A DNA stretch of 64,000 bases, from IMG/VR virus record IMGVR_UViG_3300021400_000027, positions 32,001 to 96,000 of that record; one strand, written 5' to 3'. Each line of letters opens with the position of its first letter. Position 1 is the stretch's first letter. The notes beneath the pieces are model-generated. The model made no database searches. It was not told the DNA's origin and saw nothing but the letters and a program-made list of their open reading frames with translations. This stretch comes from a virus. Its lineage: Duplodnaviria > Caudoviricetes. Positions 1-64,000 of the stretch are shown piece after piece. The position numbers and the translations under genes are program-made.

Positions 1-1
1 T

Positions 2-3000
2 AGTAAAATAGGAGACCTATCAAAAGAAGAAATGGACGCTCTCTATAACGGCGATTATGATAAAATCACATCTAAAGAAGGTAAAGAGGCTGTAAAAATT
101 TTCAAGTCTGTACCAGAAGAAGGAGAAGAAATAGATTATTTAAAGAGCGACTTAACAAACAATAGACAACAAGACTGGGAAGATGAAGTAAATAGTTTAA
201 AAGAAATAACGTCCAATGCAGAAAAAATATGGGATTTAAGTAAACTAACTGCAAAAGAAATAGAAGCAATAAAAATACAATATAATAGTTTTTTAGAAAG
301 AGTTCCAGAAGATATAAGGAGTTCTATTGATTCTATACAATTATATTTACAATCCTCATCTGGATTGAGCAAAGATGATTATCAAAAAGCATGGGGATAG
401 GTAAATTGGGCTGATTTAGGAATTGAAAATTTAGAAACCGAAAGAAAGAAATTTATTGACGCATTTAAAGAAAGCGGTGCTACGGAAGAATAGGGAGCAT
501 AGGCTTGGGAAGAGGCATTAAGTGCATATTAGAATGCCGGTGTTATTTCTTTAGATTTTAATAACCCTGAAGAAGCACAAGATTGGCTTGATAAATAGAA
601 AGAAGAATTAGAAAAAACTTTTGATGAAGATGTTTCGGTTTAGTTGGCATTAAAACCTTCTGGTGAAAAATTATCAGTAGATGAACTTGAAGAATGGCAA
701 AAATACGCAGATGAGATTGGCGAGGATATTGAGACTTTTGTTGATTTAGACACCATGACAATTACTGTTGATGCAGAAACTTATGAGGAAAAGAAAAAAG
801 AAGCATTTGAAACGATTAATCGATCTATATCTTCACAACAAACTCAATTAGAAGCTCTTGCTAAAGATACTAAATTAGGAACAGAATTAGAATCTGTTGA
901 AAGCATTTTAGAGAAATATGATGAGATTAAATAGAAAAAAGAAGATGGGATTGCTTTAAATGAAGATGAACTTGAATTTTATGATGAATTAACTCCAAAA
1001 ATGGAAACAATAAATTCTCTTGAAAAAACTCGAAACGGAATGATTACTGCTGCGTTGGTTTAGAAGAAAAAAGAATTAGACGCAATAACAGAAGCAAGAA
1101 AAGATGAATATGAAACTTTAAAAGGTTTAAGAGATGCACAAGATAAATTAAATTAGGCTGTTAAAGATTAGACTGAAAAAGTTTAGGAAGCATAGAAAAA
1201 AATTGATGATTAGGTTAAGAAAAATGCAGAAAACGAACAGAAAGCATTAAAAGAAATTAATGACGCACTTAAAGATGTTGCAGAACAAGAAAATACAATT
1301 TTAGAAAAAGAACAAGCAATAGTTGATAAAACTTAGAAATTAAATGATGCATTATATGGAACTGATAATTACTTATCTAAGCGAAATTCTTTACAAAATT
1401 ATTCTGATAGACTTGATTAGCTATCTTCCGCCGCAGAAAAAGCTAAAAAAGCTCTTGATAATCCAGAAATTGGTGATAATGTTGCAGAATTGGTTAAAAA
1501 TTATGGTGAAGCCATTCATCAAGAAATGGTTTATCAATAGGCTTTAAATTAGAGAAAAGAAGATTAGAAAAATCAAATTTTAGGATATTTATAGGGATTT
1601 GGTTCTGAATATTTCACAATAGTAGATGGATTCTTACAAGCAAATTATTCTGCTATTGATAATGCTTAGATGAATGATTAGCTTAAAGACCAAATTTATC
1701 AATACCTTGATGATTATAATAAGGTTTAGAAAGAGATTATTGATGGTGAAGATAAGTATAATGATTTACTTAAAGACATGAAAGAAAGACGTAAGTCTGC
1801 ACTTTCAGATATGGTAAATCTTTAGAAAGATACTGCAGAAATTCTTAAAGAAAGTTATGAGAAAGAAATTGAAGATGTAAAAGAGAAGTATGATGCAATT
1901 AAAAAAGCTGATGATGAATATTTAGACGCTTTATAGGATGCTATTGACAAACAAAGAAAATTAAGAGAAGAAGAAAACAAATGGAATGATTTAGCTACTA
2001 AAGAAAAGAAATTATCTTTAATTTCAAGAGATACGTCTGGCTCTCAATAGAAAGAAACTTTAAAACTTTAGGAAGAAATTGAAAATGATAGATAGTCATT
2101 ACTTGATAATAGTGTTGATAATATTTTAGATACGTTAAAAGAAACTTATGAGGAATAGTAGAAAGAAAGAGAGGAAGAACTTGAATATCAAGAACAAATG
2201 ATTGAAGATATGGACTTTATGAAATAGGCTATGGAAATTATTTAGTCTATGGATGGAAGTTCAGAAAATTATTTAGCTTGGCTAACGGAAAATGACCCCG
2301 AATATTTAGAAGGCTCTCCTCTTGAACAAGAATTATATTTAGAAGAACACGCAAATGATTTAGCTCCATTTGAAGAGTACGCCGCCATTACAAATTCTAA
2401 TTTCCAAAACTATTTAAATATAACTGCTGATGAAGTAAATCAGGTAATGGCTTAGACTTCTGATAATATGAATGAGTATTTAGAGAGAAGTCATTAGAAT
2501 ACTTTAGACAAAGTTTAGGAAGAATAGGATGCCGCACAAGAAGCATTAAATTAGGCTTATGAAGATTTAGATGAAGCTAAATTAAAACTTGAAGAATTGC
2601 ATGAAAAAGTTACCGAAGCATATGAAAATTATGACCAAACTTTAGCAGATGGAGAATAGGATTTACAAGAGGCTTATGAAAATTATGATTAGGTTTTAAA
2701 AGATGTAAGAGATAATGTTAGAGATACGCAAATTGCATATAATGAAGCTATGGAGGCTGTTCATAAATTAGGCATTACAGATGTTTCTGATATGGATAAA
2801 AAAGTAGAAGATTCTTATAATAAATATATTGCTGCTTAGGGCAGTGCTGAGCAAGCATTACTTACTTATAAATAGAATTTGTTTTCTTATGGAACTGCCG
2901 TAGCTGATGTTCTAGATGCAATATCAGGAGAAGCATCTGCTGATACAATTCGTCAAATAAGTGCAGATTATACTAATGCAGAATCAATAGCTGGAGAGTT

Positions 3001-3526
3001 AAATTCACGCTTACAGAATGCAGAAATTAATTTAACTTGGGCAGCACAAAATAATTTAATGGATGAAGCTGCCCATGCAGCATCAGAATTAAATTCAGCT
3101 AGAAATTCTACTGCATCTGACGCTTCAAATTTTAATAATTCAAGTTCTTATGTTGAATTAGTTAATGAAAATGGAAGATTTATACCTAAAGTTAAAAATA
3201 AATATGCTACTGGCGGTTTGGTTGATTATACTGGACCTGCTTGGGTAGACGGCTCTCCAACTCGTCCAGAAGCCTTCCTTTCTGCCGAAGATACTGCTCG
3301 AATTGGTGCGGCGGCACAACTCTTATCCAATCTTCCGTTCCTTAATACTTCTTCCATTACTGACAATTCTTATTCTTCAAATGTTGGAGATACAACAATC
3401 GAAGTTCACATTAATATAGAAAATGTATCAAGCGAACAGGATATTGATGACATGATTAATCGTGTAAGAGACGACATCGTTTCAATGTCAAATCAAATTG
3501 GAAATCCAGTTCTCTTAAATAAATAA
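2..3526 (+). CDS. Tail tape measure protein, C-terminal part (5' truncated by window; TAG=Gln)
   Basis: ORF fragments 32, 644, 2249 and 2879 are all in one frame, separated only by TAG, and end at TAA 3524-3526. Long E/K/Q-rich coiled coil with a C-terminal YATGGLVDYTGPAWVDGSPTRPEAFL motif typical of tape measure C-termini. Lies directly upstream of a Dit-like gene. Confidence 0.85.
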
Positions 3527-3531
3527 AAGGG

Positions 3532-3558
3532 TAAGGGGTTCTTTATGAACCCCTTTAT
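3532..3558 (+). terminator. Stem-loop after tape measure gene (putative intrinsic terminator)
   Basis: AAGGGGTTC-TTTAT-GAACCCCTT inverted repeat immediately after the stop codon. Confidence 0.6.
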
Positions 3559-3582: not shown

Positions 3583-6189
3583 ATGAGAGATTTTACGGGC
3601 TTTCGCTTTGGACAAGTTCATTCGGAAGATTTACATTTAGTTGTTGTAAGTTCAAGTAATCGTTATTCTAAAAATGTTTTGCCGGCTCTCAAAGATTATA
3701 CGAAAGAAGTGCCGGGTGGAGATGGTCAATATTTATTTGGTTAGACCTTCTCTACACAAGAATTTACAGCTAATGTGGCTTTTAACGAAGTTGATGAAAA
3801 AACTTGGAGAAAAATTTCACAACTATTTTCAACTGATAAGCCATAGGATTTAGTATTTGATGAATTGCCATTTAAAACTTATCGTGCAAAACTTAAATCT
3901 AAGCCAGAATTCAAATTCATTTGCTTCAATAAGAATGGAGAAAGAGTTTATAAGGGTGAAGGTACTCTTAACTTTATTTGTTATTATCCTTATGCGTTTG
4001 GTTTTAACAAATATGTTGTTAGAGCCGCAGACTATTACAAATGTGCAATGCCAAAAGAAATTATAACTAATTCAATTGAAGAAAACCCATATAAAAGAAA
4101 GGAAAAACCTAAATTTCTGCCGGGCTTAATCAAAGACCATTATAATGTCACCCCCAATATGAGTACGCCTTGGAAAGGCGGCTATCCCTCTATTGAATAG
4201 GTTCAATGGGGTGAACTTTACTTCAATTCGCCGGAAGGCAAAAAGTTAATTGATGTAAGAGATTATTTTAAGAATGTTCCTGAATGGGAGCCGGCGGCGC
4301 AACTACTTACTACTCCAACTTTAGATTATGATAGAGAATTAATTTATATGCCACAATATAGTAGAACCAATTACTATAATATGGATACTGGCTTAAATCG
4401 TCAAAATGGAATGATTGGAAGTAGAATTTTAGTCTATAATCCGGGGGATGTGCCAATTGACTTTGAACTTAAATTAGGAAATTTAGTTTCTCGTTATCGT
4501 GCAAATATGAGTGATAATGATAAGAATTATCGCTTTAGAATTAGTAGATATAATGTTCAAAGACTTTCAATTGAATAGGCAGTTGACTGGTGTGGACTTA
4601 AAACCTATCATAGAGAAGATGATAATGATTACAAATATGCCGGACGCTACTTTACAATTCTTGAAAACAACCCAAAAAACGAGGGTAAAGATTCTACTAA
4701 ACCTTCTTGGTGGTATGAAGAAGAATGGGATTATAAGCCTTTTGAAAGAAGATTGGGTGCGGCCGCGCCACGTCATTGCTATTATGTAGAACCAATTCCA
4801 AGAGAAAAATTAGGCTACTTCATTCGCCTATTCTATTGGCAAAGTTCTCATATTGATGACCCTGAAGGTTATACTGCAATTCCTTGTAATTGGGAGAAAG
4901 GCGTAGAACTTGCAAATAGATATGAGGAGTTATATGAACTTTGTATTACAGATGAAGAACGCTATGAACTTTACTGGGAAACATTAAAGACAGCAATTCT
5001 TGATTGCTATAAAGAAGTTAATGAAAAAATTATTTATGGTTCTGGTCTTAAAGGCAAGAGCTACGGTTTCTTTGATGAAACAAATAAGAATGGCGGTTAT
5101 ACTTATGAAGATTTTGTTCATGATTATATTTATAATCAAGCAGATTACATAAGAGAGAATGATGCAGAATTAGATTATGGTGAATTTAAATTCCATGTAG
5201 GTAGATTGCCTTAGTATATGACCTTTGATTATATTGAACTTAATTCAAATGATTTCGATAAAATTCAGGGTTGTAAATGCGGTTGTGACTGTTTGGTTGA
5301 TGACGACCCTGACCATAATACAATTAAGCCTCTATTTGTTGACTCTGAACGTAGAATGGTTTATAATATAAACAATCCAGAATATGATAAGAATGATGAA
5401 TTAAAGTCAAAGAATTTCTATCATTTTAAACCAGAAAAGAAAATTTTTAACGATAATATTGTTAAAGGTAAATGGTTTAAACTTCCGCCCGGTTGGTCAT
5501 TAATTGAGATTGCTCCAGTTGTTGACGAAGATTTATGGGGTGGCAAGCGTTGGTTAGACGCAAGACCATTTATTTGGGGTAATATTGATTAGCACCTGCG
5601 TGAGCATTTTGATAAAGTCTACTGGCGTGCCGGCGTAGATTGGTTAGCAGAAGCAAATCCATATTTAATTCTTAATAAAGATTGGGGAATTGAGGGAGAT
5701 TTAAAAAATAAGAACTTCAATGAAAATTCAACGCCAGAAGAAATTAAAAATTATCTAACTCAATATTGTTCTAAAGTTGAAGATTTAGAAAATTATCTTT
5801 AGTTTAGACGTTGGTATTTAACAAATAACGAACTCGATTTAAGTAGTAAAGCTAATAGAGTAAATTATTGGTAGAGTCAATATACAAATGAGAACGCTGG
5901 CGGTGAAGATTCTCCATATAAAGATAGATTCTCTGTTAATGATTTATCTGGATTAACCTTTGAAATTCAAAAACGCAGAATTGAAAACGCAGAAAAAGGA
6001 TTTTTAAAGCGTTTAGATGACTATTGGAGAGTTAATAATGTTGATGTTAATGGTTAGCCAAACGGCACAATTGATGATTGGTGGTGGTTTGCTAATAGCT
6101 ATAACTGGAATAATTTCCCACCTATCTATTGGGCATATGCTGACTTATTAAACTCAATTGAAATTAAATATGTTCCTTTGTTCTATTAA
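3583..6189 (+). CDS. Distal tail (Dit)-like protein with large insertion, ~868 aa (TAG=Gln)
   Basis: GAGGTG RBS and ATG 3583. N-terminus MRDFTGFRFGQVHSEDLHLVVV..VPGGDGQYLFGQTF..LVFDELPFKTYRAK is typical of siphophage Dit. Fragments 3865/4348/4753/5218 are in the same frame, joined through TAG; TAA at 6187-6189. Confidence 0.75.
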
Positions 6190-6204: not shown

Positions 6205-9200
6205 GTGGCTATTGAAAAAAAGCCTTATGAAATAAGTATTTGGAGTGAAATACTTGGAGAGAATGGTTAGAAAATAGAACATAAAGATTTTATAATTGGA
6301 GCGCACGACATGGAGTATGCCGGTCGTGCAACTTCCATTAAATTTGAGAAAAAGTTAAATGGAACTCATACTCTTACTTTTTCAATGCCAGATAAGTGGT
6401 ATGATAGTAAGTTGGGTGATTACGTCTATAATGAGTTTATAGACCAAATGTATAATGAGAGAAAGGTTAAGTTCTTTTATAAAAATAAGTGGTATGAGTT
6501 TTATATTAAATCAATTTCAGAAGCTAAGAATTTTAAATCCTATATGAAAACTTATACTTGTAATGATGCTTTTATTGATGAGTTAAGTCGTAATGGTTAT
6601 GGACTTACATTTGATGAAGAGCTTTACAATAATGTTGAGGAAATTGGTACATTTACAGAAGAAATTTTAGAAGATTCCATTTGGTACTATGCGCCGCAAA
6701 ACAACTGGGGAGATTTTACAGAGTTCTTAGAAGAAAAGTTATTTAAAATTCCAGTTAGTCAGTTTAAGTCTCTTTATGGCTATAAACTGAATTATAATGT
6801 AGAAAATTCAGACTCTAAGATTATAAATGCTTATACTAATGAAAAAAGAGATATTGAAATGGGTGACGATTTGGCAAGACAAGAGAGTTTGTTCTGGGAT
6901 TAGAGAGGAGAAAACGGAGAAATTCTTAATCCTTTAATTAGTGTTGCGCCGACACTCATAGAAAATGATGAATACATTTATGTTCCCTATTCTCAATTAA
7001 ATTTCTGCTATAAGACTACTATAGATGGAAATTCGTCTATTGTTACAGCTACAGAAGAACCATGTTTTTATTGGTTAAATGGGGAATAGAAATCTTATGC
7101 CATTGCGCCGGCGACCACTGACCCCTCCGCTTTAATTCAATTTATTGCAATTCCAAAAGATGCAGTTGTTGAAATTGATGAAGCCGGCACGATTGTAAAT
7201 AAGAATTATACTTATGTTATGACTGTTAAGCAATGGAATGATGCATTAAGATAGAATGGAAATTTCTATTCATTTGAACCATTTGAATAGATGAGAGAGC
7301 AAAATGGCGTTTTAGTAAGAAGAAAAATTAAAGATTATGTATTTGGAGAACAGGATGCCAACACAGAATTAACTGGTAATTATACTGCTTATTATGAAGG
7401 ATATTTAGATTCAATTGGAGATATTGAAGTTTTAAAAGGCAAAAAAATTTCAATTTCTGATAGAACAGAAGTTAATATAACGAGTGAAATTGATTAGTAT
7501 GTTAAAGTTTATAATAATTTACCACAAGATATAATTACTAATGATTTTACTTATGCCGGAATGCTTGATGAGAATAAAGATTGGAAAAATGGATATGATA
7601 ATTATAAAATTTGTTCTAAATCTGCAACCAGACAAGTTATTCCTCAACTTGCAAGAAATTTAACTTAGAACGGCGTTAATATTCGTTCAGTTGATGGTTG
7701 GGAAGTTGTTAAATTATCAGATGATAAAAATGTTCCTTCTTCAACCATTAAGTTCATAAAAAAAGGCAATGGCGGCGCAATACAGCTAACAAAATCAGGA
7801 GCTAATGATGGTGAAGAAATTGATGTTGATGTAGCTAGCGGTGAGGGTGATACCAATGCAACTAAAGACTATCAAAAATATGGAAAGCATGACCTTAATA
7901 CCGTAATCAATTTTGGTATCGTTGGACAAAATATAACTTTAAGTAAAGAAAAAATCTATGTTCTTGGATTTAAAGGTAATTTAAGTCCTAATGATGCTAT
8001 TATTATTGGTGAAGGTAGCGTAATTAGTTCTGGCGATTACAAAGTTTATTGGGAACATGCCTCTTTAGGCTATACTGGCAATTTCTATTCAATTAGTTCT
8101 TTTATGATTGACGGTGCTTTAAATGTAAACAATGAAGCTACTTTCATTTTTATTAAACCATTAAGAGATTTTATAAATCCTTATATTGGAATTTGGATGC
8201 GTGATAATGATAAGGATTTAATAAGAGAAGTGGAAGAATTATGGTTTTTTGAAGCATATACAAAAGGTAGAGATTAGTTTGTTAGAGATGATGCTCACTT
8301 TAGATATAGTGGAAGAACAATTAGCGATGGTAGTGATGGTGTTGTTGTTACCGAATAGAATTATACAAATAAAAATGGAGAAACTTATTACAATTATAAA
8401 AAGAAAGGAACGAATTTTATTATCAGACCATATACAAGAAGTGAAATTAAAAAGTATGTAATTTTTGAAGATGACGTTATGCCGGGGGACACTTACGAAT
8501 ATTAGCAATATTTTATTCAACAAATTTCTGCTGGCGACCAAGTGGCAGATACATTTGCTTAGAAAAAATTTTTAAGTGAAGATGGTCCAAAATCAAATAA
8601 TATTCTCCCCTTTAATTCTTCTGAATATACAGAGGACGATTTAAATTTTAATACAGCTTATTTCAATTTAAATAAATGCCCTTATTATAATGAAAATGGG
8701 AATGCTGATTAGCCAGATTGTGGCTATTGTAATGGAACTTGTCTATATTAGAAAGATGGATATTGTCCTTATTTATTCCAAACTGAAAAACATTGTAGAA
8801 AAATTAGAACTCTTAAAAAAGATAAATCAAATCGCTTTAATTTAACTTAGGAATTAAGTAAAGTTTTTGAAATCTATCCAATTTATTTTACTAATAACGA
8901 CAGTCAAGGCAGAATTGTTAAGAAGGTAGAAACTATTGATAATAAGCCTGTTGAAATAATGGATAAAAGAATTTTCTATATCACTGAAAAAGGGAAAGAA
9001 AATAAACTTGGATTTAGATATGAGAAAAACTTATCTAATATTAGTAGAACTTTAAAGAGTGACCAAATTGTCACAAAGCTCTATGTTCAAGATGTAGATA
9101 GCGATATATCTAATACTGGTCTGTGTTCAATTAAGACAGCAGAAGATAATCCTTCTAAAGATAGTTTTATCATTGATTTCTCTTATTATGTCTCTAAAGG

Positions 9201-11832
9201 ATTAATTAGTGCAGATTAGGCAGAACGAGACCTTTATGGAATTGAAAGTGGAGATATGGCTTATCTAAAACAATTAGGTTATTATAACACATAGTATGAT
9301 AAATTATCTAATTTAATTATAAATTTATAGTCAGAATCTTATACTGAATTAGAAGCTAATGTCGATGTAAACTTTGAAGGAATTATTGCGGCAAAATAGC
9401 AACTCCATAAATTAAAGAAACAATTGAGTAAATATGGAGAAACTGTTAATAGCACAAGTGAAAAATCAACAGTATAGAATACAATAATTAAATTTAATGA
9501 ATAGTTAGCAATATTAAATAGTTTATATGAAGAAACATTTGGACTAAATAATGATATATTGGTAATGAATGAAGATGGCGCATATGAATTTAGAGATGAT
9601 ATTAAAGATGTGCTTTATTTAATTGTAGATAAGACATCTGATAGTAATATATATACTCCAGTAACTATGGAGAATTTTAAGGAAACAGATTATTATAAAA
9701 ATCATTTGCATGAATGGGGCATGCTTGGTCAATTTAATAGAGAATATAGACAAATTCAAGAATGGAAAAAATTGCAAGCAACTTATTTAAGGAAAATTAA
9801 TGAATTATCTTTGAACTTCTTTAAAAAATACGAACCATATATTAAAGAGGGTACTTGGACAGATAGCAATTACTTGACTGATAATGCTTATTATTTTGGA
9901 GCATTAGAGGTGGCGGCGGAAGGGGCGATTCCTAAAGTCTCCTATACAATTACAACAGTTGACCTATCTACAAAACCAGAATATGAAGATGATTATGAAT
10001 TTGATATTGCTGACACGACTTACGTTGAAGATATAGGAATGTTTGGAATTAATTAGAAAACTGGTTTGCCGAATAGACTTAAAGTTTTAATTTCAAGTAT
10101 TACAGAAGACCCTGATGTACCAACTTCTAATTCAATTAATGTTCAAAATTTTACCACACAGTTTGAAGATTTATTTTAGCAAGTTTCAGCTACAGTTTAG
10201 TCTTTAACTTATAATGAAAATATTTATAAACGCTCTTCCAATTTTACTTCAAATCAAAACGTAAAAGAAGATAGCTTGCAAGGAACTTTGGATTCAAACA
10301 ATTTAACCTTAATAAACACTAAAGAAAATAATATTGAACTTGATTCACAAGGGCAAGCCGGCAGCGATATAAATAATCATAGTAATAAATATAAATTAAA
10401 TGGTCAAGGTCTGTTCTTCTCAAATAATGGTGGACAGACTTGGAATGTCGGTGTTGGACCGAGTGGTATCAATGCAGATTATATTAAAGTAGGCTCACTT
10501 GATGCCGGCAAAATTAAAATTGTTGATAATGACTTCTTGTACTTCTATTGGGATAAAGATGGAATTATTGCATTAAAAGAACCATCAAAAGATACTTAGT
10601 CATCTATATTTAATTCATATGCTATGTTTAATAGATATGGACTCTCTTTAGTAGAAAACGGAAAAATTAAACTTAGAGCCGGCTATGAATTTAATTCAGC
10701 ATCTAATGGAGAAATAAAAACAGAATCTTCACAAAGTAACCGCTTAGGCTTTTATTTATATGATAATAGCGGCTATCCAATTTTTAGAACAGAGACGGCA
10801 TCTGATATAACGAGTGATGCCAGAGATAAAAAAACTGCAAGATTATCTTTAAGAGGAGAAATGTTTGTTACAGATGGATTCCTTTCTGATTCTTTATAGG
10901 CAGATTTCTATGTTTTTTCTGTGTCTTGTTACTCTCAAAATATTTATTTAGGACATTCATGCCAAAAGCCAAATAATTTTGAAAATGAATATGTTGAATT
11001 TAGTCCTGAACTTAAATGTTATTTCTATACAAGTGATGGCTATAAATATCATGTAAGTCGAGGAGATAGTGAAAGATTTTAGTCAACAGTTGATAATAAT
11101 TTATACTTAATTCATTATAAAGGTAAAAATAATGATAAAGACGAATGGTTCTCTATTAATACTACTGAACAAACAGAACAGGTTTATATTATTGGTGATT
11201 ACGGTGCTAGTGTAGTTACAAATATAAGTAGTGAAGAAAAATTAGAAAGTGTAACCAAAAATAACTCATTAGTATTTGATGGTGTTGAAGGAAATCTTTA
11301 TGGAGAAAAAGTTTACGCATATGGACAATTATATGCGAATGTGAAAACAGTTAAAAATACAGAAAATCCAAATACAATTGGCTTATATCTAAATAATAAA
11401 ATGGAAAACGGTAGTGCATCTGAATAGAATGGCTATATAAAAAGAATATTAAGTTGTGTAAAAGAAGAGAATGGAAATTTAAACAACATTCTTTCTATTT
11501 TACAAAACGGGTCTTTGTATATTGGAGGTGTAGTAGACCCTCAATATAGTAATGAAAGAACAATAAGTGAATTAAGTGATTTAATAAAAATTGATAATGC
11601 TGGAATTGAATTAATTAAAGAAAATGGATAGTACTAGATTAGAATGGATTTCGCAAACTTTAAAGATACCAATGGTAATAACTTAGCATCTTCAATTACT
11701 GGAACATAGGAAGACGTAGGAAATATAAAGAATAAATTAAATGAAGTAATTGAGAGAATTGATAAATGGAATGATGATTGGTTTTATAATCGTCCTACAA
11801 CAGTATGGAATACTGATATTGGTCAAATTTAA
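6205..11832 (+). CDS. Large tail/baseplate-hub (Tal-like, minor structural) protein, ~1875 aa (TAG=Gln)
   Basis: GAGGTG RBS and GTG 6205. Fragments 6310, 7291, 8959, 9559, 10276 and 10624 are all frame 1, joined through TAG; TAA at 11830-11832. Follows Dit; contains GFRYEKNLSNISRT..IVTKLYV and GINADYIKVGSL motifs like phage tail proteins. Confidence 0.75.
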
Positions 11833-12633: not shown

Positions 12634-12661
12634 GTAAATAAATTTTATGGAGGTAATACAA

Positions 12662-13696
12662 ATGGAAGAAAAAGGTTTAACAGTAGCAGACGCTCTTGCC
12701 CTACGTAATTCAGGTGATGACGGATTCGGTTTTGGTAATGGTGGCGGTTGGTGGGTAATTATTCTTATCCTCTTCTTAATGTCTGGCTTTGGTCGTGGAT
12801 TCGGCGGCTATGGCAATGGAAACGGAAATGGAACAGATACCAACACAATCTTTGTACCATACGGCGGCGCAGGATTCGGAAACGGTTATAATAACTGGAA
12901 TCCATGTTGTTCACCAGCTACAGCACAGGGCATTTCTGATGCATTCAACTTTAATGCTTTAGATAATGGCATTAGAGCGACTCACGAGGCAGTAACAGAT
13001 GGTTTCTATACTAATAATTTAGCAACTACAAACTTAGGTACTGCCGTTCAGCAATCTTTTGGTCAGGTTCAGTTACAGAACTGCCAAGGATTTAACTCTG
13101 TAATTAATGCTACAAATAGTGGTGTAAATTCACTTAATGCCGCATTTAATGCAGGAATTAATAATCTCAATACTGGAATGACTGCAGGCTTCAACAACCT
13201 AAATACAAATGTAACTGGTAGCACAAATTCACTCCAGAATTCTCTATGTAATGGATTTAATGGAGTGCAGACTGCAATTGCCAATACAAACTGCAAATTA
13301 CAAGATTGCTGCTGTGAAAACAGAGAAGCCTTAATGCAGACAAATTTTGCAAACCAAACTGGCTTTAATACTTTAGGTACAGCCATTGCCACAAATGCTT
13401 GTGACATCGAAAGAGGACAAGACGATATTCGTTATTTAATGGCACAAAATCAAAACCAAACAATGATTGGAATTGACCGTCTTGGCGACCGTTTAATCGA
13501 CTATATGAATCAGAGTAAACTTGATGAACTTCGTACTGAACTCCAGAACGCTAGATTCCAAATCTCTCAGGCAGAATAGACTGATGCCATTATTAATCAA
13601 CTCCAGCCAATTGCAAAACCATCTTGGCTTGTAAACTCTCCTTATCAGTCTTTAAATTATAATGGCGTAAATGCTTGCGGTTGCGGAAATTTCTGA
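12662..13696 (+). CDS. Membrane-anchored Gly/Asn-rich coiled-coil protein with CCC motif, cassette gene 3 (344 aa)
   Basis: GGAGG RBS before ATG 12662. GGGWWVIILILFL hydrophobic segment, N/G-rich repeats, LQDCCCENR. One TAG at 13577 is read through to TGA 13694-13696, ending ACGCGNF. Confidence 0.85.
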
Positions 13697-13709
13697 GGAA
13701 GTGATATAA

Positions 13710-14126
13710 ATGGCTTGCCCAAATGTATCATGTCTTTGTAATCACTTAATACTCTCTCAGAGTGTGACCTTTGCAGACGATACTCTTTTAATTGATTTGC
13801 CGGCAGGCACATATGAGAACGGAGAGAAGTATTGTATTGTTGTTGCCTAGGACATTCCTGAGGATACAACAATAGCCGCCGATGTAGCAATCACAATCGG
13901 CGGCGACACAACCACAACTTATCCCTTAGTAAACAATAATTGTACTAACGTTCAGGCTTGTAATATTTCTACAAGAACTCGTTATGCTACAAGAGTATTT
14001 ACTAATATTGGCAGTGGAGTATTCAAATTACTTGGAAATTTAAACTGTTTTAATTGCAGAAGAAATAATGCGGCGGCTTCGCTTCCTATCGTAGCCGCTG
14101 AAGCAACCGGAGGGGAGAATGGATAA
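13710..14126 (+). CDS. Cys-rich beta-rich hypothetical protein, cassette gene 4 (138 aa)
   Basis: GAGG RBS; MACPNVSCLCNHLILSQSVTFADDTLLIDLPAGTYENGEKYCIVVA*DIP...; one TAG; TAATG overlap with the next gene. Confidence 0.8.
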
Positions 14127-46559: not shown

Positions 46560-46582
46560 TATTATCAACCTCCTTATATAAT

Positions 46583-52800: not shown

Positions 52801-53848
52801 GGAAAGAGCTGTTGCAGTAAGAGTTCCATATATGGATAATGGAGTACTAAAAAATAAAATAATTAGCTATAAAAATTATCATTCTGCTTATGGCTTTGAA
52901 GATTTTCATAAAAAGTTAATTAATGACTTAAATAATAGCACTTCTCAAAATTATCAATATCGTGGAAATGGAAGCATGTCTTTATTAGGAATTATAAATG
53001 GTTCTGTTGCTGATGGATATTTAGATGGAGACACATATACAACTTCCGTTTCTGGAAATGGCGATAAACAATATTTATTAATGACTGTTGATGGGGACCC
53101 TCTTGGTGAAGATAATTGGTTAATAGTTAAGGTTTCTTTCCCATATGGTGCCGCCGCACCTGATATATTCTATACAAGTAAAATGGTTGGAACACAAGTT
53201 GAAAATACTGACATTGAGTTCAATATTTTCCCATATTGTATGGGATGGAGTGGTGTAGATATTGAGCATACGTATTCTGAAATGAATGAGAATACTATTA
53301 ACAATGCTTATAATGATTACGTTAGAGATAGATTGAGACGACAATTAAGATATAGAAACTCTTTAGTTAATGCTGGAGGAAAATGGTATACTTAGAATAC
53401 TCGTGGTGTAGATGTATTTCTTAATGCTGATATAGTTAATTAGTTAAGAGTAGATATATTTGCGCCGGACGGCAGTTTCTCTACTACAAAATATATTAGA
53501 AATTACACTGGAATGACTATAAATGGAATTCCGAATGTAAAATGGTGTAAGAATACTGAACAGGCTGTAATAAATGATGTAAATAATATTTATTTCCCTT
53601 ATTCCTATAAGTATAATGCATCTACTGGTGTAATTACTCCGGGCGCAGAAATTTCAAGAGAAGGATATTAGGTCATTTATAATTCTAATTCTGGAAAAGA
53701 TTATGAACGTTATAAATCTAATGGACGTTATATTCCTTGTACTGCCGATGACCCTTATACTCCAGATGCTATATTAAATGAATACAATTTGTAGCCAGAT
53801 GATAATGATGACAACTGGCCTATTGTTTGGGCAGAAGGTGTTGAATAA
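49874..53848 (+). CDS. Large putative virion protein, paralog A (~1324 aa, TAG=Gln)
   Basis: GGAGG RBS; fragments 50222/51389/52220/52568/52772 in the same frame; TAATG overlap with paralog B; shares VEVEDLNRNFWVI..QLWENVFxLWL with paralog B. Confidence 0.75.
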
Positions 53849-56800
53849 TGCAAGATAAAAAGATTAAAGAATTATTTGAAGAAATTTCTAAATTGAAAGA
53901 TGGTAAAAATTCAGTTGAAGAAATATTGAAAGAAATGCAAAATGTCGACATTATAAATAATTTGGAATATATTAAAAATGAAATCATAGAGCCGGAAGAG
54001 GATAGTCCTCTTTCGGCAATTGGTTAGAAAATTTATGATTTAGTAAATAGTGATATAGATTTAGATGATTTAGTTTCATATTTTAATAATCATTAGAACT
54101 TAGACTATTGGAACGAATCAATAAATACTCTTTACAATAATTATAAAAAATATTTAAAAGATAAAGAGTAGAATGTGATTCCTGTTTCTAATGGTCGAGT
54201 TGTTGAATGGAAAGAAATTGGAATGGCGGATGCTGCAAACAGTTTTGAAGCTGAATAGAAATGGGTTATTCCTTGGTTTTCAATTTTTGATAGAAGAATA
54301 GAGAATGAGGCTAATTTAGAAGAATTAACTCCAAAGTAGTTTAAAGACTATTTAAAATCCTATAGTGATATAAGAGATATAGATAAGTTTATGAAAGCTA
54401 TCATGTCTAAAAATAATTTACAATTTACTCATGAGAAATAGAATGAAGAATTGTGGTATTGGATAAGATTAATTATGCCAAAAAACACAAGACGAGTAGA
54501 AGTTGAAGATTTAAATAGGAATTTTTGGGTAATTGCCTAGACACTTAGTGGAATTATGGCATACCTTTGGGATACAAAATCTCCTATTACCAATCTATTA
54601 AAAGGAATTTATGATGAATTATTACAATTATGGGAAAACGTATTTTATTTATGGCTTTACTATATATATACTATGGCGGCGAAGGTTAATGGGATTCACA
54701 TTGAATTTTTATACTTATCTGAATCCCCTCATGAAAGAAGTGCTGAATTAAGATTTGATAACTTTTCAAAAATTGAAACAATTGATTATATGAATAAAGA
54801 CTATTGTATAAGAATTAGCTCTTATTTAAAAGAGTTAATAAAAAAATATCCAGACAAACATTTGTGTATAATTCCTTGTATAAGAGAAGAGAATTATGAG
54901 AAAAATTATTTTTCATCTTGTTCAATTCCTATGGTATATTTTTATGATAGAGTTAAAGGAGAATCTTCTATTAAAATGCTTGCAAAAAAAGTTGGAAATA
55001 CTGTAAAGCCATTTAAAGTAGGCATATATGGAGCTTATAAAAATGATGTGGATTATTCCTCTTATTTATATGGATGGTGCGATAATGGTAAAAAGGAATT
55101 AATTTCTTATCCATTTAATCATATAAGTGCTTTTTCAGAAAGTGTTTAGAAGAAGTACTATTGTGCTTTAAGAATTTTACCTGAAATTGATTTAGATTAT
55201 ATTAATGGAGAGTTTATAATTAATTCTTTATCCTTTACTTTAATTGATGCCGTTTAGTCAATGCTTAAAAATAGAGATATGCCAATAGCTAAATGGGAAG
55301 GCACTGGTAATACTACAATATTATTAGAAGAAACCAAATTAAGTAATGAAATAACAAGAGATAGAAAACCTTATGCCGCAAGAGCATTAAGAAGAAGATT
55401 TTATTTAGGTGAAGTTTTGAGTGCAAAGAAGTGGAGTAAACTTAAAACTGAATATCTATTTGACGGAATAGAATAGATAGGTGCAGAAGAAGGAATCTTA
55501 ATAAAAATAGGAAACTATTTGCCGAATTCAACAAGAATTAATAATAGTGACTTTTATAAGGGGGGTAAAGTAGAAGGTCTTGATTTTGCTCCATAGGTTA
55601 CAGCATCAAATTCAAGAACTAATTATTTGTTTAATTTTGTGAGAACGGCATTAAGAACTGGTTCAACACCAAGCGTTAAAGATAGTAATGGAAACTCTTA
55701 TTCATCAAGTGATGTTTCAAAATCTTTAATTAAAGATTGTAATTTCTATATTCCTTGTCAGATGAGTGAGTTATAGAATTATGACCATATAAATATATCT
55801 GGCGAAGTACCAATTTCCAATGCTGAATATTATTGGAATGTAGTTGACGAAGAAATTAATTCAGAAGAATGGAATAGCTTTACTTCTAGCTTTATTCCTT
55901 ATATAACGAATAAAAAAGAATTGCGAGGATATTTGCCGGCAACATCTATCAGTTTGAGAGGATTAAGATTATTAGGCTTTTATATAATTATGAACTATTT
56001 ATTATCTGATTTTAAAAACAATAATTCCAAATTAGATAGTAAAAATATACAAATCTTTTTAAGTGCTTTTGGCGGAAATCCATGGGTTGGCGGCACAATG
56101 AAATATTTGTAGAATCAAAGTAAAAAAATAACCTAGTTCTATTTTAAAGAAAATATGTTATTAGATAATTTTGTATACGTTCCAAAAAGTTATATAACTA
56201 ATGAAGATTTTATTAAATTAAATAATGGATTAGATATATACAAAGATTCTTTAAATTCAGAGCAAATTGCTTCAATTTAGGGTATTAAAGTTGGAGAATA
56301 TGGATATTTACTATATAGAGGTTACATAGGAAAATCTGAAATAAATTTTGGTAGAGACAGTAGCGAAAATTTACAAACTAAATTTAACGAAAATTTAAAA
56401 GATAATCTTTATTTAGATATTTATAATAAGGATAGATGGAGATTACCTCAAATTAATAATATTCCTGTCTTTTCCTCTATTATAAAAGTAAAAGAAGTTG
56501 GCATATAGGATACGAATTCTTTTTATTTAATTTATGATAAAACATTACAAACTTTATATGAAACAGACCCAGAGTCTTTTTCTGACTATATAGATACAGA
56601 AATTAATAAAGAAGACTCTCAATTAATCCCTTTAACTAAAGAAGAAGCACTTAAAAAATTAGGAACTATGTTAATTAAAGACTATAAAGCGAAATGGACT
56701 GTATTTGATGGGTATACTAATTATGCTGATGGTACAGCGGCGAAAAATAATATTTTATCACAAAATTTAATTACAACTGGATTGGGAAGTACTTATGATG

Positions 56801-57933
56801 AACTTGCAGAATTTACTTTTGCTTTTTACAATGGAAATATTGGTCCAGTATTAAAAACAGGAAGACTTCGTTCTATAATTAGAGATAAGAGTGAAGGAGT
56901 AATAAGGTCTTCATGGTATTAGGTGACAACATGGAGTAAAATGGCAGAGCAATTAAATATGATGTGGGTAACTTCTCGTTCGTTTACGGATGATGATTAC
57001 GATCCTTGTTCAGATACTACTCCATATTCACAAAATGAAAAGGATAAATGGGGATAGAAATTTAATATTGAAAAACTTCATGACTTTTATAATGAAGAAA
57101 ATTTAATTTCGTTAGGAATTCCAGAAGAAGAAAAAGTAGTTATACCAGATAATACAAATTTAACATCTTTTAATTATGGAATAGACGTATCAGAAGAATA
57201 GAAGACAATTAATTGGAACACTTTTAGTACAAATACGTCTTCAAATATGGCTAATGCAACTTTTAAAAGAGATTTCGTTATAATTAAAGCTGGCTATGGA
57301 AAATATACGTCTCAAATTGATTAGCAATTTGCTAATAATGTAAACGGATGTAAAACTAATAGTATACCTTTTGGCTTGTATTATCATGCATATGCTCAAT
57401 CTGAGGCAGAAGCAGAACAAGAAGCACAAACATTTTTAAGTATAGCTAATGGAATTTGTGTACCTTCGGATTTAACACTACCAGTTTATTACGAATATGA
57501 TTTAATTAATTCTAATGCCGGCAATATAATTGAAGCCTTTTGTAGAAAAATTGAATAGGCTGGTTTTACTCCCGGATTATGTATTAATGAGTCTAAGCTA
57601 TATGATAAAATAAAGAAGAATAAAGATACTACATAGCTTTCTATAAAAAGGAATACTTATATAAAAAATAATATTGTAGATAGAAAGAGAACATGGGTTA
57701 AATATTATCCTTATAAAGGAGTTAATGGTATGCCAGATGCTGAACAAAGGAAATGTCTTGATTTATTTAAAGATGAAGAAGGGAATTATTTATATGGAAT
57801 TTGGCAATATTCTAATGGTACTGAAACTAATTTAACTAAGGATAATAATAACCAATTAATTGAAAGTCGAGAAATTAATGGTATTAATACTAATACCACT
57901 ATTAATAGAGATATTTTATTTTATGGCTTATGA
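53848..57933 (+). CDS. Large putative virion protein, paralog B, with C-terminal GH25-like muramidase domain (~1361 aa, TAG=Gln)
   Basis: Fragments 54556 to 57730 are all frame 1, joined by TAG; C-terminal YGIDVS..FVIIKAGYG..PFGLYYHAYA..IWQYS. Confidence 0.78.
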
Positions 57934-58218: not shown

Positions 58219-61044
58219 ATGGGTGTAATTATAAGAAATGGTAACGCTTATGGCGGATTTGATAAAGACTTTACTGTAGTAGAAAGTTTAGCTAGCATTG
58301 AATCGCCAAAAACAGAACATTTATATGCAGTTGGAAAGAAACTTTATTATCATAATGGTACTGAATGGATTGAGTTTAATCCTGATATTGAAATTCCGAT
58401 TGGAACTCCGGAAGTTATTAATGCAGAAGAAAATCAAATTTTAGTTGGAGATGGAGATGGATGGACTAAAGGCTCTCATTTTAAATAGTTAAATGGTTCT
58501 TTTGGTGCTGGTATTGATGTTTCAGAAAATGTTCCAATTGAATTTGGTTATAGAGATGGAGACGACTTTAAATATGGTTTATAGATTAAAGCAACTCCTA
58601 ATATTCCTAAAAAAGTAAGACATTGGTCTAATGAATTTGATGGACCTACGATAATCGTAGATGGTGGTTTTATTGAATTAAAAACACAAGGAGCATCTTA
58701 GGAACATTGGACTGGACCAAATATTTCTTTAAGAGGAGATAGTTTAATTGATATTTCAAGTACTCCTACTACTCCATATTATACGCCTTTAAAAAATGAA
58801 GACCATTAGCGTATTAGATAGGCTTTTGATTTACCTCAATATCCAAGCGTAAAATTTACAGCTACTAATATACCAATGTTAAAAATGAAAGATAGTGCAA
58901 CAATAATTATGGAAGAAAATTCTTTACTTCAAATGAAAAATGATGCTATTGTTGAAGTTAGTGGTGCAGCGAAAGTTTCAATTGATGGATATTATAGTAC
59001 TAAAGGCGGCCCTATAGTTAGTGGACCGGACCCAACAGAAGTATTTATTGGACCGGGGTCACATATTAAAATAAGTGGATAGGGCCGTGATAAAACAGGC
59101 TATCCATATGCTGCGATTTCATCCCCATATTTTTGTATGGAAAAAGACCATATAATAATGGCAGTTTTCCCTCCAAGTTCATCAACAATTGAGTATAAGT
59201 CTGGGGGAGATACTTCATTTAGAGTTACTCCTGTTTTTGATGGTGGTACAGGATGGGCCCCTTCTTTAGGTTTCGGTGATGATTCTTCATTTAATGGCAA
59301 ATAGATTGCTGCACATCCTACTCTATGTGATAATCGTACCACATTGAGCGATTCAATGTTATCTTGGAATGGTAGAATTTAGAATCCATATGTTTTAGTT
59401 CAAGGTAAAACAACTATGGAAATTGGAGATGGCGGTGTAATTGGTATTAAAATGGGACCAGAAGAAGGTGGAGTCTTAGGTATTGATTTTACGCCCAGCG
59501 CAGGCTCTTATACTTATATTAAAGCTGGTAGTAAGGGTGGCTCTTCGACTATTTTAGATTTAACAAGTGGTGCCGGAAGTTTTAAGCATATTAAATTTGG
59601 TTTAGAGGACGGTGCGCATTTGGATATGGCTGTAGATTTTGGTGGACATAGTTCAATTAAAATCGCTCCCGGTTCACATGAATCTAATTCTGGTAGCGGT
59701 AACTGTCACCTGCCTACTTAGTTTGCTTTTAATTTAACTCCAGTTCATACTGATATAAGAGCTTAGTGGCATGAGACTTTATGCTATCTTGAAAGTAGAA
59801 AATCTTATATTAAAACATCTGATATTAATCATATTGATATGTCTGGTGGCTTATTAATTTTAAGAAGGAAAAAAGAAGAGGTCGCTTCTTCTTCTTCATG
59901 GCGAGTATATGCAGATACGAATACATATACATATCAAACAAAGACAAATTATAATTCAATTTCTGCATTTTTAGCTGATACTAATAGAAATGAAGAAAAT
60001 ATAGATGCTTTTAATACTGACTTTGGACAAGGTGTCTTTACTAAATATAAACGCATAGTTAATTCAAGTGTAAATTCCGTTCCTTCTGATGGATATGAAG
60101 ATATGTATCAAATTACTCTTTCTAAAGTAATTTGTGATGGAGATATAGTTGTTAATTCAAATACTCCTGTTAATAACTATACTACTTGGTCTTAGGTATA
60201 GAGAAACTCTTCTTATACTTATATAGTTAATAGAGACGGTATGACAAAGAAGGATACTTCTACTTTTAGCGTATCTGGCTATAAGATTCAATTAAAAGAT
60301 ATGCATTTTATTAAAAAGGAATTTACAGTAAAAGGACTTAAAAACTCCTATGATACTCAAACAGTAACATCTTTTGCTGATTTAAATGCAGAAGATTAGG
60401 CAATTATTTAGGCAGATTTAGAAAATTAGGGCTATACAAATATTGACTTTTCTGCTGCAAAATTATCTTCTTCTACTGTTCGTTCAGATATGCGTTATGA
60501 TACTACTATTTCTAATATACAATATTATACTGGTTCTCCAATGGCACATGATTATAGTGGAGTTGTTTAGCCTACTGACGATTATGAAGGATTGCCAATT
60601 CTTCAATTATGTGGTATGTCAAGTATTTTAATGGGTGATTATGTTTATTCTGATAATACTTTTTATGAGTCTTAGGAGGACTTACCTTTATCTGGAGATT
60701 ATGTAGATGTTACAGCATTTAAACAATCTACCGCTTACTCTGCGCTTATAACAGACTTAAAATAGAATAATAGAAATCTAATTAGTTTAGGTAACATATC
60801 CAAGAATCCCGGTTCAACGGCAAATACTTATAAATATTTTTATTCATATGTATATAGACAACATATGATTGCAAGAGATAATCCTATTATTGATGTTCAA
60901 GGAAAATCAACATTATAGCTTGAAAACTTTAATATTAAAGGTTATATCGGAGAAAATGGACCAACAGTTGAATTTGGATATGAAGGAACAACAGTAAGTT
61001 TTACTATTGACGAATTACAAAGATTAAAAGCATTATTAAGCTAA
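58219..61044 (+). CDS. Putative tail fibre / receptor-binding protein (~941 aa, TAG=Gln)
   Basis: GAGGTG RBS; N-terminal LYYHNGTEW fibre-like motif and Gly/Ser-rich beta-repeat middle; fragments 58219/58876/59416/59839 in the same frame; TAA at 61042. Confidence 0.65.
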
Positions 61045-61100: not shown

Positions 61101-61134
61101 TAATGCATAAAATAATTCAAAAGGAGTGATTCAA

Positions 61135-62247
61135 ATGGCTACATTTGTTAATTTTGGAACAGACGGCGGTGAATTCGCCGAAACTAACTTCATTGGCGGT
61201 CCAAACATTGGCTACTCAGATGGCTCACCTTTCTTAAGTGCAAATCGTCCAGTGCCGTCTTTCGACCCCAAAGAAAAAATTTGTGGCTTCACATACGGAT
61301 ATATGGCTAATCGTGGGGAGTATCGCTCCCCCCGAGGTGTCGACTCTCAACGTAGACTCTTCGACCTCGGCGTGAATTGGATTTGTTTGGCAATTGCTAA
61401 TTATCAAAACAAATACTATTCAACCGAAATCCATGCAGACTACTTAAAAACACCTACTGACCGTGACATTGCGGCAGTTGTTGAGAGGGCGCACAATAAT
61501 GGTGTTAAGGTCTGTTTAAAACCAATGGTAAATACAGAAGATGGCGTGTGGAGAGCACATATCGGATTCCCTGACCTTCATTCAGGAGACATGGACTATT
61601 ATTGGAAACAGTGGTTCATTAGCTATAAAAATTTCTTACTCCACTATGCTGAACTTGCACAAGAACTTAATTGTGAAATGTTATGTATTGGTTGTGAAAT
61701 GATTGGTACAGAGCATAGAAAATATGATTGGCTTTATTTAATTGAGCAAGTTAGACGTGTTTATAGTGGTAAAATTGTTTATAATGCTAACCATGACCGA
61801 GAGGACGCAGAAAGTTGGTTTGACGAACTCGATTATATTGGTACTTCTGCTTATTACCCTGTCGGACAGAACGGCATTAATGAACAGGCTATGAGAGATG
61901 AATGGCAGAAAATTAAGTGGAGACTTGATGCTATTGCTGAAAGTAGAAATAAGCAATATATTTTTATGGAGACGGGTTGCCGCTCTGCTACAGGAAATTC
62001 AGTAGAACCTTGGGATTTCAGCGACAAGTTCAACGAATTTAATGACCATGAGTAGGCTCTTTACTATTCAACTTGTATGGACGTATTTAAAGATGAGCCT
62101 AAGTTTGCTGGTGTATTCTGGTGGGATTGGCCTACTATATTACCTAGTCAAGAGTTCACAAAGAAAGACCTCACTTATTCTATTTATAATAAGGAAGCGG
62201 AACGAACTCTTAATAAAATTTATAGAGGAATTAGAGGGGTGAGATAA
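61135..62247 (+). CDS. Glycoside hydrolase, GH113 (beta-mannanase)-like TIM barrel (370 aa, one TAG=Gln)
   Basis: VCLKPMV..WRAHI, YAELAQ..CIGCEM, YNANH, GTSAYYP, FMETGCRS, PWD, E*ALYY and GVFWWDW; read-through of TAG 62053 completes the barrel and gives TAATG coupling. Confidence 0.82.
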
Positions 62248-62990
62248 TGCCTGAAATTGAAAACGAGAAAAAACTAAGTAAGCATAAATTTTCTTATGAC
62301 ATTCAAAGAAAATAGTATGTTGAAGGTGACGAAAAGTTTAATACTGAAATGAAAGAAGATGGTTATATATTCTAGTTTGACCGCCTTTATACAGCTCATG
62401 ATGATTAGGATTTAAAGACTTATAAATTTAAAGCTAAATTAACAGAAGAAACTTTAGAAAAAGAGTCCGATGAAGATAGTGAAGTAACCAATATAAGTGA
62501 TGAACAAAATGCTCCATTTGTTTGGTCGTTACTTGATAATGAAATTTGGCATATTGATACTACAATTGCTGATTATAATGCAATGGTAGATACACTTTGG
62601 TAGAATGTATATGATGATACTACTGGAGAACGCCTAAATGAACAAGAAGAAGAAACTATAAATGCAGAACGTGGCGTTCAGTATTATAAAGAAATGAATA
62701 TTATCCTTAATAATGAGGAGTATCATTTACCAGAAGATTGGAATGGTAAAGATAAAATTTATTTCATTACTGATATGAATCCAGAAACCAATCTCGATGT
62801 ATCAAAAACTTATCCACAAATTCCAGAAGGCACAGATGGAATTATTGAATAGGCAATTGGAACAATTGTTAAAGGTCTTAAAGCTCTTGTTACTTTAGAA
62901 GTTGATTATGATGATGTTGTCGCCGGTGGCATTAATCCAGAGGAATATGGTTTTAAAAAGAGCGAAAGTGGAAAGCTGATTAAATCCTAA
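62247..62990 (+). CDS. Acidic hypothetical protein (247 aa, TAG=Gln)
   Basis: TAATG overlap; open through TAGs to TAA 62988; absent from the code-11 track. Confidence 0.7.
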
Positions 62991-63034
62991 AAGTCAATCA
63001 TTAGATTGACTTTTTTATTTTTCTTTAGTATAAT
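62990..63034 (+). promoter_or_regulatory. Fused terminator / sigmaA promoter
   Basis: AAAGTCAATC-ATTA-GATTGACTTT hairpin with T-tract; TTGACT(63006)-N17-TATAAT(63029). Confidence 0.75.
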
Positions 63035-63063
63035 TTAAGAAAAAGTTTTGGAGGGATATTTTA

Positions 63064-64000
63064 ATGGAATTTAATGTACGTCAAAAAAAAGTTATAAATG
63101 CAGAAGAGCCTAAAATTCTCTGCTTATCTTCCGCCGCCAGTGGCAAAACTCGTGTACTCACTGAAAGAGTTAGAGTTTTAATTGAAGAAAAAGGTGTGCC
63201 GGCGAAGGAAATCGTAGCAATTACTTTCACCAATCTTGCAGCAGATGAAATGAGGAAAAGATTAGGTTCAATTGCAGAAGGAATGTATATTGGTACGATT
63301 CATGCCTATGCGGCGAGAATTTGTTATGAAAATAATATAGATGTTTAGCATTTTATTGATACTGAATACTTTGATAAAATTTTGGATAAGGCTTTAACTA
63401 TCAGCAGAAGTCACTATCCTAAAGTTCGTCATCTTTTAATTGATGAGTGTCAGGATTTAAATGACCTTAACTATCGCTTCATCAATCGCATTCCGGCGGA
63501 AAACATCTTTTTCGTAGGTGACGAGAAACAAATGATTTATCAGTTTAGAGGAGCTTCTGAAAAAGAACTTATGAATATCTATAAAGACGTTAATTATAAA
63601 AAGTATTATCTTATAGATAATTATCGTAATGCTCCTTCAATTGTAGAATTTGCAGAAGATTTTCTTGCAAGTTCACATCATTTAAGTCCTCTTTCCAATC
63701 CTGTAAAAAAGAAAAGAGGAACAGTAGTGGAATGTTCTTTTAGAGAAGCGGTTGAAGAATTAGAATATAGTGGCAACTGGGGGTCTTGGTTTGTACTAGG
63801 AAGAACTAATGCTCAAATTCAAGAAGCCCAACGTATCCTTAATGAAAAAGGAATCCCTAATATTAGTTTTAAGAAAGGAGATTTTGACCTTGATGAATTA
63901 ACAGAATTAATGGCATCAGATAAAGTTAAAGTCCTTACCATTCATACGGCAAAAGGGCTTGAAAATAAAAATGTAATTGTTACTGGTGCTAAATTATATA
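63064..64000 (+). CDS. uvrD: Compact UvrD/PcrA-family SF1 helicase (3' truncated by window; TAG=Gln)
   Basis: SAASGKT, AITFTN, GTIH, IDECQD, VGDEKQMIYQFRGA, DNYR, GRTN and TIHTAKGLE motifs; read-through at TAG 63346. Confidence 0.85.

Follow-up and report, generated by a model that had tools for sequence, protein, structure and literature searches.

Evidence that TAG is very probably read as glutamine in the structural and lysis genes of a large phage encoding its own tRNA-CUA

Does TAG terminate translation in the phage whose genome contains the DNA analysed here or is it read as an amino acid, and if so as which one? The DNA is a stretch of 64,000 nucleotides (hereafter the window) that corresponds to bases 32001-96000 of the 179,787-bp IMG/VR record IMGVR_UViG_3300021400_000027 (Duplodnaviria; Caudoviricetes). 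The record is rated complete, carries direct terminal repeats at its ends and thus represents a genome of ~179.8 kb, with a GC content of 32-34%. By its gene content the phage is large and siphovirus-like; the genes for the large terminase, the portal and the virion proteins lie upstream of the window. An original prediction, made from the letters of the window alone, proposed that TAG encodes glutamine (Gln) as in genetic code 15, and all the coordinates on which it relied turned out to be exact. The explanation that we consider very probable overall is that TAG is a Gln codon in this phage, decoded by a Gln-like transfer RNA (tRNA) with the anticodon CUA that the phage would supply itself, and that, following a published model, this arrangement would lock the late genes. 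Positions below refer to the window unless the genome is named.

Reading TAG as a sense codon restores the gene structure of the window. The comparison of tables 11 and 15 that the prediction had proposed was carried out with a greedy gene call, and coding density rose from 59.9% under table 11 (63 open reading frames (ORFs), median 125 amino acids (aa)) to 94.6% with TAG as sense (51 genes, median 248 aa). The gain is specific to TAG, as the same call with TGA as sense gave 70 genes, 63.3% density and a median of 120 aa, and with TAA as sense 94 genes, 81.5% density and a median of 117 aa. Under table 11, 64% of the window lies in ORFs of 100 aa or longer and 30% in ORFs of 300 aa or longer, and these shares rise to 95% and 77%, respectively, when TAG is sense. 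The TGA control hardly changes the table-11 figures (68% and 30%), while the TAA control reaches 93% for ORFs of at least 100 aa but only 34% for those of at least 300 aa, that is, it adds short ORFs alone. In total ~213 in-frame TAGs were counted in the window (173 in 34 of the 51 called genes and 40 in the truncated first gene, with up to 30 in a single complete gene) and ~490 such sites in the genome. As had been described, code-11 fragments are collinear and split by TAG alone, and read-through restores long genes as well as TAATG stop-start coupling at five junctions (14126, 14587, 48392, 53848, and 62247), which confirms the read-through observation. It had also been claimed that every reconstructed gene ends in TAA or TGA. 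This is true, and the 204 called genes of the whole genome do end in TAA (150) or TGA (54), but it follows from the reading rule and therefore carries no evidential weight; the coupling and the density do. TAA and TGA remain stops in this phage, given the lack of gain when either is read as sense and the TAATG junctions.

Fragmentation under table 11 is also what one would see if the TAGs were damage, either in a decaying or defective phage or from assembly or sequencing errors, and it is the only thing that speaks for such an explanation. However, TAG alone interrupts the frames, TAA and TGA never occurring within the long ones, and collinearity is kept even in a gene with 85 TAGs. The TAG positions are also common to relatives. 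Among 160 related IMG/VR loci, which were gathered around the amidase and, by a scan seeded with a 6-sequence alignment, around the terminase, 198 of the 198 stops found opposite TAG sites of this phage are themselves TAG. Finally, the genome is complete with terminal repeats and encodes a matching tRNA-CUA. Pseudogenization or assembly error was rejected on the TAG specificity, the shared TAG positions and the tRNA-CUA, and we regard the probability of damage as negligible.

The same 160 loci were used to ask which residue TAG specifies. All proteins of the genome, with X placed at each TAG, were compared with the DNA of the loci by tblastn under table 11, so that Gln in the aligned relatives stands for CAA or CAG. 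A Codetta-like count, of the kind that the original prediction had suggested, over the 103 TAG sites at which five or more sense residues were aligned gave log-likelihoods of -309 for Gln, -391 for glutamate (Glu), and -396 for lysine (Lys). The mean column at TAG sites (Q.21, E.14, K.12) resembles that at true CAA/CAG sites (Q.28, E.12, K.10) and not that at Glu sites (E.44) or Lys sites (K.42). Where a column is at least 80% conserved, the conserved residue at TAG sites is Gln in 11 of 25 cases, Glu in 4 and Lys in 2, and at true Gln codons it is Gln in 42, Lys in 8 and Glu in 7 of 74. The share of Gln at TAG sites increases with the identity of the aligned relative, from 16% (<45% identity) to 27% (45-60%) and 35% plus 12% TAG (at least 60%), and at true Gln sites it is 25%, 34%, and 48% in the same classes. 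In the nine close relatives that have no in-frame stops, Gln occupies 45% of the TAG sites and 49% of the CAA/CAG sites. The reciprocal test, in which the in-frame stops of relatives were placed on the proteins of this phage, found them on its TAG (8.1%) and Gln (4.65%), the latter at least six times as often as on any other residue, the next being histidine with 0.71%, Lys with 0.44% and Glu with 0.37%. Codon usage is in line with these alignments: CAG/(CAA+CAG) is 0.18 in TAG-rich genes against 0.43-0.49 in TAG-poor and TAG-free genes, a depletion that is expected if TAG replaced CAG. Taken together, the alignments and codon usage support the assignment of TAG to Gln, that is, genetic code 15.

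Single codons that had been singled out as telling point to the same residue. At 48653 the TAG of the amidase (AW-TAG-NLP) aligns with Gln in all 120 homologs, and in the viral DNA loci this site is CAA or CAG in 83 cases and TAG in one; each of the eight closest homologs (65-91% identical) shows Gln at no fewer than three of the four TAG sites of the gene. The TAG at 41774-41776 in the EFDGRxH motif corresponds to Gln in 41 of 41 homologs, the closest of which (96% identical) has Gln at four of four TAG positions. This gene starts at the methionine 61 codons into the long ORF and so holds four TAGs, not five. In the glycoside hydrolase of family GH113 the TAG at 62053 (HE-TAG-AL) aligns with the Gln of 'deq' in the mannanases of PDB entries 7dv7, 7dvz, and 7dvj, and Gln is found there in all five viral loci. 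The pair of paralogs with FWVIG-CAA-T in paralog A (50705) and FWVIA-TAG-T in paralog B (54538) was likewise borne out, with Gln in ten relatives and TAG in two at the latter site; with only 31% identity between the two, the remaining sites of the pair are uninformative on the residue. The claim of TAGs peppering a poly-Gln tract at 11984-12090 holds in part: TAGs do stand among CAA codons there, but the segment is a Gln-rich N-terminus with four TAGs and no homopolymer. The terminase, which has 13 TAGs and was compared with 150 representatives from an exhaustive HMMER search, carries TAG at the near-invariant Gln columns Q82 (Gln in 88 of 90) and Q398 (116 of 128).

A TAG codon with a sense meaning requires a tRNA to read it. 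No tRNA was found in the 64-kb window with Rfam at the gathering threshold, in agreement with the absence of a suppressor noted from the sequence; a 'tRNA-Lys(UUU)' reported by ARAGORN at 29364-29454 on the minus strand was rejected as a false call, being 91 nucleotides (nt) long, lying across the start codon of PhoH and having no Rfam match. A look at the rest of the genome, as had been advised, located a tRNA-CUA at genome positions 119883-119956, ~24 kb beyond the end of the window, with 53.8 bits on the Rfam tRNA model. It belongs to a tRNA array at 119.2-125.3 kb of the genome, in a TAG-poor region. The tRNA-CUA has U1:A72 and A73, and its first five acceptor pairs are shared with the tRNA-Gln(UUG) of the phage (ARAGORN structures, compared by eye). 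U1:A72 is a mark of bacterial tRNA-Gln. When 116 tRNAs of this phage and of five large relatives were compared, the closest to the tRNA-CUA was another suppressor (70% identity), followed by tRNA-Gln(CUG) (59% and 56%), and the tRNA-CUA of one relative is 85% identical to a tRNA-Gln(CUG). These similarities support a tRNA-CUA of the Gln type. An exact search of viral contigs for the anticodon arm of the suppressor gave no match. The prediction had further suggested a search for a release factor or synthetase gene, and in the genome neither release factor 1 or 2 (RF1/RF2; PF00472, PF03462) nor a glutaminyl- or glutamyl-tRNA synthetase (GlnRS/GluRS; PF00749) was found, so that charging and termination would have to rely on the host.

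Some further observations were made on the small RNAs. One relative (L171:2011, record G004) has a tRNA-CUA of 94 nt with a long extra arm, the suppressors of the other relatives being 74-81 nt. An ARAGORN 'tRNA-Glu(CUC)' at genome positions 138764-138839 has no Rfam tRNA match and may be either degenerate or a false call. No ribozyme family, HDV (hepatitis delta virus)-like or other, was detected beside the tRNAs with Rfam at E up to 0.01, the presence in Rfam 15 of a model for the 'theta' ribozymes (PMC10879173) not having been checked. Outside the window, at 136820-137161 of the genome on the plus strand, lies a full-length transfer-messenger RNA (tmRNA; Rfam RF00023, 141 bits) with the ARAGORN tag peptide ADYAIAA, and a phage-borne ribosome-rescue RNA in a TAG-filled genome may merit a look.

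Could TAG be sense but stand for another amino acid, Glu or Lys being the nearest, for example through a tRNA-CUA charged by a non-discriminating GluRS without subsequent amidation? After Gln, Glu and then Lys are seen most often at TAG columns, two terminase columns that are strongly conserved as Glu carry TAG, and the phage genome has no GlnRS. On the other hand, Gln is ahead of both by ~80 log-likelihood units, the TAG column profile matches true Gln sites and not Glu or Lys, and the distribution of residues over the strongly conserved TAG columns is like that at true Gln codons. The TAGs of relatives also fall on Gln of this phage at ~12 times the rate seen for Glu or Lys, and the tRNA-CUA has U1:A72 and, apart from suppressors, tRNA-Gln as its nearest neighbours. 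We therefore hold a Glu or Lys meaning to be highly improbable and retain Gln as the residue.

The genes of the window, read with TAG as Gln, are as follows.

1..3526, plus strand: tape-measure-like protein, C-terminal 1174 of 2560 aa; the gene starts 4157 bases before the window and has 40 TAGs in the window and 85 as a whole
3583..6189, plus strand: distal tail protein, Sipho_tail, 868 aa, 9 TAGs (PF05709, E 1.7e-9)
6205..11832, plus strand: tail or baseplate protein, 1875 aa, 30 TAGs; its longest code-11 fragment is 197 aa
11984..12406, plus strand: 140-aa protein with Gln-rich N-terminus, 7 TAGs, four of them among CAA codons at 12026-12083
12647..14949, plus strand: four small genes with 1-4 TAGs each, TAATG coupling at 14126 and 14587
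14973..46592, minus strand: TAG-poor replication and nucleotide-metabolism block with dUTPase, ClpP, PolIII alpha, RecJ, DnaB, PhoH, AAA_24, GyrA, GyrB, NrdG, NrdD, and ATP-dependent ligase
41546..41968, minus strand: DUF2726-like protein, ~141 aa, with EFDGR-TAG-H (TAG at 41774-41776), 4 TAGs
47382..48392, plus strand: protein of 336 aa, 5 TAGs; a weak match to a dockerin-like repeat falls short of the curated cut-off (PF00404, E 1.7e-4)
48392..49510, plus strand: N-acetylmuramoyl-L-alanine amidase (endolysin), 372 aa, 4 TAGs (PF01510, Amidase_2)
49865..53848, plus strand: paralog A, 1327 aa, 15 TAGs, CAA at 50705
53848..57933, plus strand: paralog B, 1361 aa, 22 TAGs, ending in a GH25 muramidase domain (PF01183, residues 1112-1323), TAG at 54538
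58219..61044, plus strand: 941-aa protein without family match, 19 TAGs
61126..62247, plus strand: GH113 mannanase-like glycoside hydrolase, 373 aa, one TAG (62053) (PF22612, E 5e-99; PDB 7dv7, E 6.5e-61)
62247..62990, plus strand: 247-aa protein, 5 TAGs, TAATG-coupled to the GH113 gene
63064..64000, plus strand: UvrD-type helicase, 361 aa in all, one internal TAG (codon 95), continuing past the end of the window

The tape-measure-like protein matches no Pfam or PHROG family and is so named, tentatively, because its gene directly precedes that of the Sipho_tail protein. Pfam and PHROGs likewise offer no family for the large TAG-rich tail proteins, and a search for relatives with the distal tail protein alone returned no match. 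Paralogs A and B are 31% identical over 502 aa, and the GH25 match is present in B and absent from A. Paralog B, which is distinct from the Amidase_2 endolysin, is probably a cell-wall hydrolase associated with the virion, and the full-length GH113 enzyme in the lysis and tail region may be a depolymerase for a host surface glycan. The weak dockerin type I match in the protein encoded immediately before the endolysin is a possible hint of a host among the Clostridia that bears cellulosomes. Within the replication block, the dUTPase gene (15698-16486) has its domain in residues 131-259 of 262, the N-terminal 130 aa being without family match. A gap of ~930 bp without a convincing gene (37580-38511) separates nrdG (37001-37579) from a small gene beside nrdD, and no Rfam family was found in it at the gathering threshold.

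The distribution of TAG over these modules is strongly uneven. In 10-kb bins, the virion and tail modules have 7-27 in-frame TAGs per 1000 codons and the lysis and tail-fibre region 8-14; the values are 1.6-2.6 over the replication block and 0.7-4.6 over the 110-150 kb region of the genome that holds the tRNA array. TAG is thus concentrated in the structural and lysis modules, and the suppressor tRNA and the presumed early genes are largely in standard code. The genes for dUTPase, ClpP, PolIII alpha (1308 aa), PhoH, GyrB, NrdG, NrdD, and ligase are free of TAG. RecJ, DnaB, the AAA_24 protein, an HTH protein and UvrD contain one or two internal TAGs (UvrD one), and GyrA has one at codon 787 of 790.

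This last codon, which lies three codons before TAA, raises the question of a dual meaning, in which TAG would act as a stop in some early genes before the suppressor builds up and as Gln later, so that some C-terminal extensions would be artefacts of a code 15 imposed on every gene. A few other genes also have TAG in their last 0-8 codons, and gene blocks with a dual code are a topic in work on recoded phages (Borges et al., bioRxiv 10.1101/2021.08.26.457843). Yet TAG is not enriched near the 3' ends of genes, with 2 occurrences in the last 11 codons against 1.2 expected in TAG-poor genes and 9 against 15.9 in TAG-rich ones, and the base that follows TAG is the same as after other sense codons (p 0.2-0.26). 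The ordinary following base and the lack of 3'-end enrichment thus do not point to any continued use of TAG for termination. A dual meaning would touch at most a handful of genes and leave the assignment to Gln unchanged, and we think it unlikely.

How might such a genome be expressed? In the late-lock model for recoded phages put forward by Borges et al., which we follow here, the host would use the standard code, and the TAG-free early genes together with the tRNA array would be expressed first. The suppressor tRNA would then be charged with Gln by host enzymes, as the phage has no GlnRS, and would compete with host RF1. Only afterwards could the TAG-laden late genes, such as those of the tape measure, tail, endolysin, and muramidase, be translated in full, and recoding would thereby lock the late and lytic functions at the level of translation. 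A different idea is that TAG density works as a graded timer instead of an on/off lock, with tiers of genes released in turn as the suppressor accumulates. The first tier would then be TAG-free (the tRNA array region, PolIII alpha, GyrB, NrdD/G, and ligase), the second would have one or two internal TAGs (RecJ, DnaB, AAA_24, and UvrD), and the third 10-30 TAGs per 1000 codons (tape measure, tail, and lysins); the tmRNA of the phage would clear ribosomes and tag the products that end at TAGs not yet suppressed. We offer this timer as a speculative and somewhat doubtful elaboration.

Several points weigh against the explanation preferred here, a Gln meaning of TAG with a late-gene lock. We infer the residue at TAG from alignments and tRNA similarity, and the closest tRNA-Gln matches the suppressor tRNA at only 56-59% identity. 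Some conserved TAG columns hold Glu, Lys or glycine (Gly) in homologs, among them terminase columns 145 and 577, conserved as Glu, and 225, conserved as Gly, and the terminase taken alone favours Q over E by only ~2 log units. The internal TAGs in RecJ, DnaB, AAA_24, and UvrD mean that the early/late split is not clean, and the TAG at codon 787 of 790 in GyrA could equally be a true stop. Expression timing, the standard-code host and charging by host enzymes are what we infer by following the Borges model.

Close relatives differ in their use of TAG. In-frame TAGs number 5-16 per 1000 aligned residues in some of those at 50-67% mean protein identity and are absent from others; the loci compared were L096, L100, L101, L103, L107, and L133 versus L085-L095, L097, L099, L102, and L117, with L100, L101, and L107 as standard-code sisters. 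Since TAG-using and TAG-less close relatives coexist, the code has switched within the clade. A tRNA-CUA is encoded by four of the four large relatives with in-frame TAGs in structural genes, and none was found in the fetched tRNA-array region of the one standard-code relative checked (L107, record G003).

The nearest cultured relatives are remote and are large phages of Firmicutes: the terminase is 35-40% identical to those of Geobacillus virus E3 and Enterococcus phages, and PolIII alpha ~39% identical to those of SPbeta-like and Enterococcus phages, so that the cultured relatives at this level (35-40% for the two proteins) infect Geobacillus, Enterococcus, and Bacillus. TAG-to-Gln recoding as such is known from gut and rumen phages, the crAss-like and Lak phages having been named in the original prediction, and has been published for these two and for six further phage clades, three of them large (Borges et al.). 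The crAss-like and Lak phages share the reassignment of TAG to Gln with this phage and employ the alternative code for late structural and lysis genes, but they infect Bacteroidetes (Borges et al.), unlike the cultured relatives named above. For crAss-like phages, Peters et al. (2022, PMC9523058) describe verification of code 15 by metaproteomics. The Agate, Jade, and Sapphire clades of Borges et al. have mean genomes of ~150-210 kb, the size class of this phage, and like it they have several recoded structural and lysis modules spread over the genome, variably recoded replication genes, a suppressor tRNA in standard-code surroundings, and close relatives with the standard code. The agreement with these clades rests on size class and genome layout only. 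RF2 occurs in two TAG-recoded Agate phages, whereas this phage has neither RF2 nor a tRNA synthetase.

Another comparison is offered by phAss-1 (proposed genus Phassvirus; Babkin et al. 2023, PMC10607447), a gut phage that is likewise large and siphovirus-like. It reads TAG as Gln in its genes for the terminase, portal, tape measure, and tail, and it also has a very long tape-measure gene and a large tRNA set with tRNA-Sup-CTA. A dedicated synthetase is lacking there too, and Enterococcus phage EF1 is among the distant cultured relatives of both. Its genome is 136 kb with three tRNA-CUA, compared with 180 kb and one tRNA-CUA here. Membership in Phassvirus was rejected, as the terminase is only 31.7% identical to that of phAss-1, which makes it a distant relative at best.

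The phage analysed here fits the published picture of recoded phages in every respect that was tested. The study describing the Agate, Jade, and Sapphire clades reportedly appeared later in Nature Microbiology (2022). The phenomenon itself, the bias toward late genes, and the patchy spread among close relatives have all been published already, and no new question is opened; the genome is a complete and internally well-evidenced addition to the known large TAG-recoded phages. As table 11 breaks up the tape measure, terminase, portal, endolysin, and tail genes, code 15 is needed for gene calling, and the table-11 annotation of this genome and of many relatives is badly fragmented. Together with its standard-code sisters, the recoded phage forms a good natural pair for studying the origin of the code switch.

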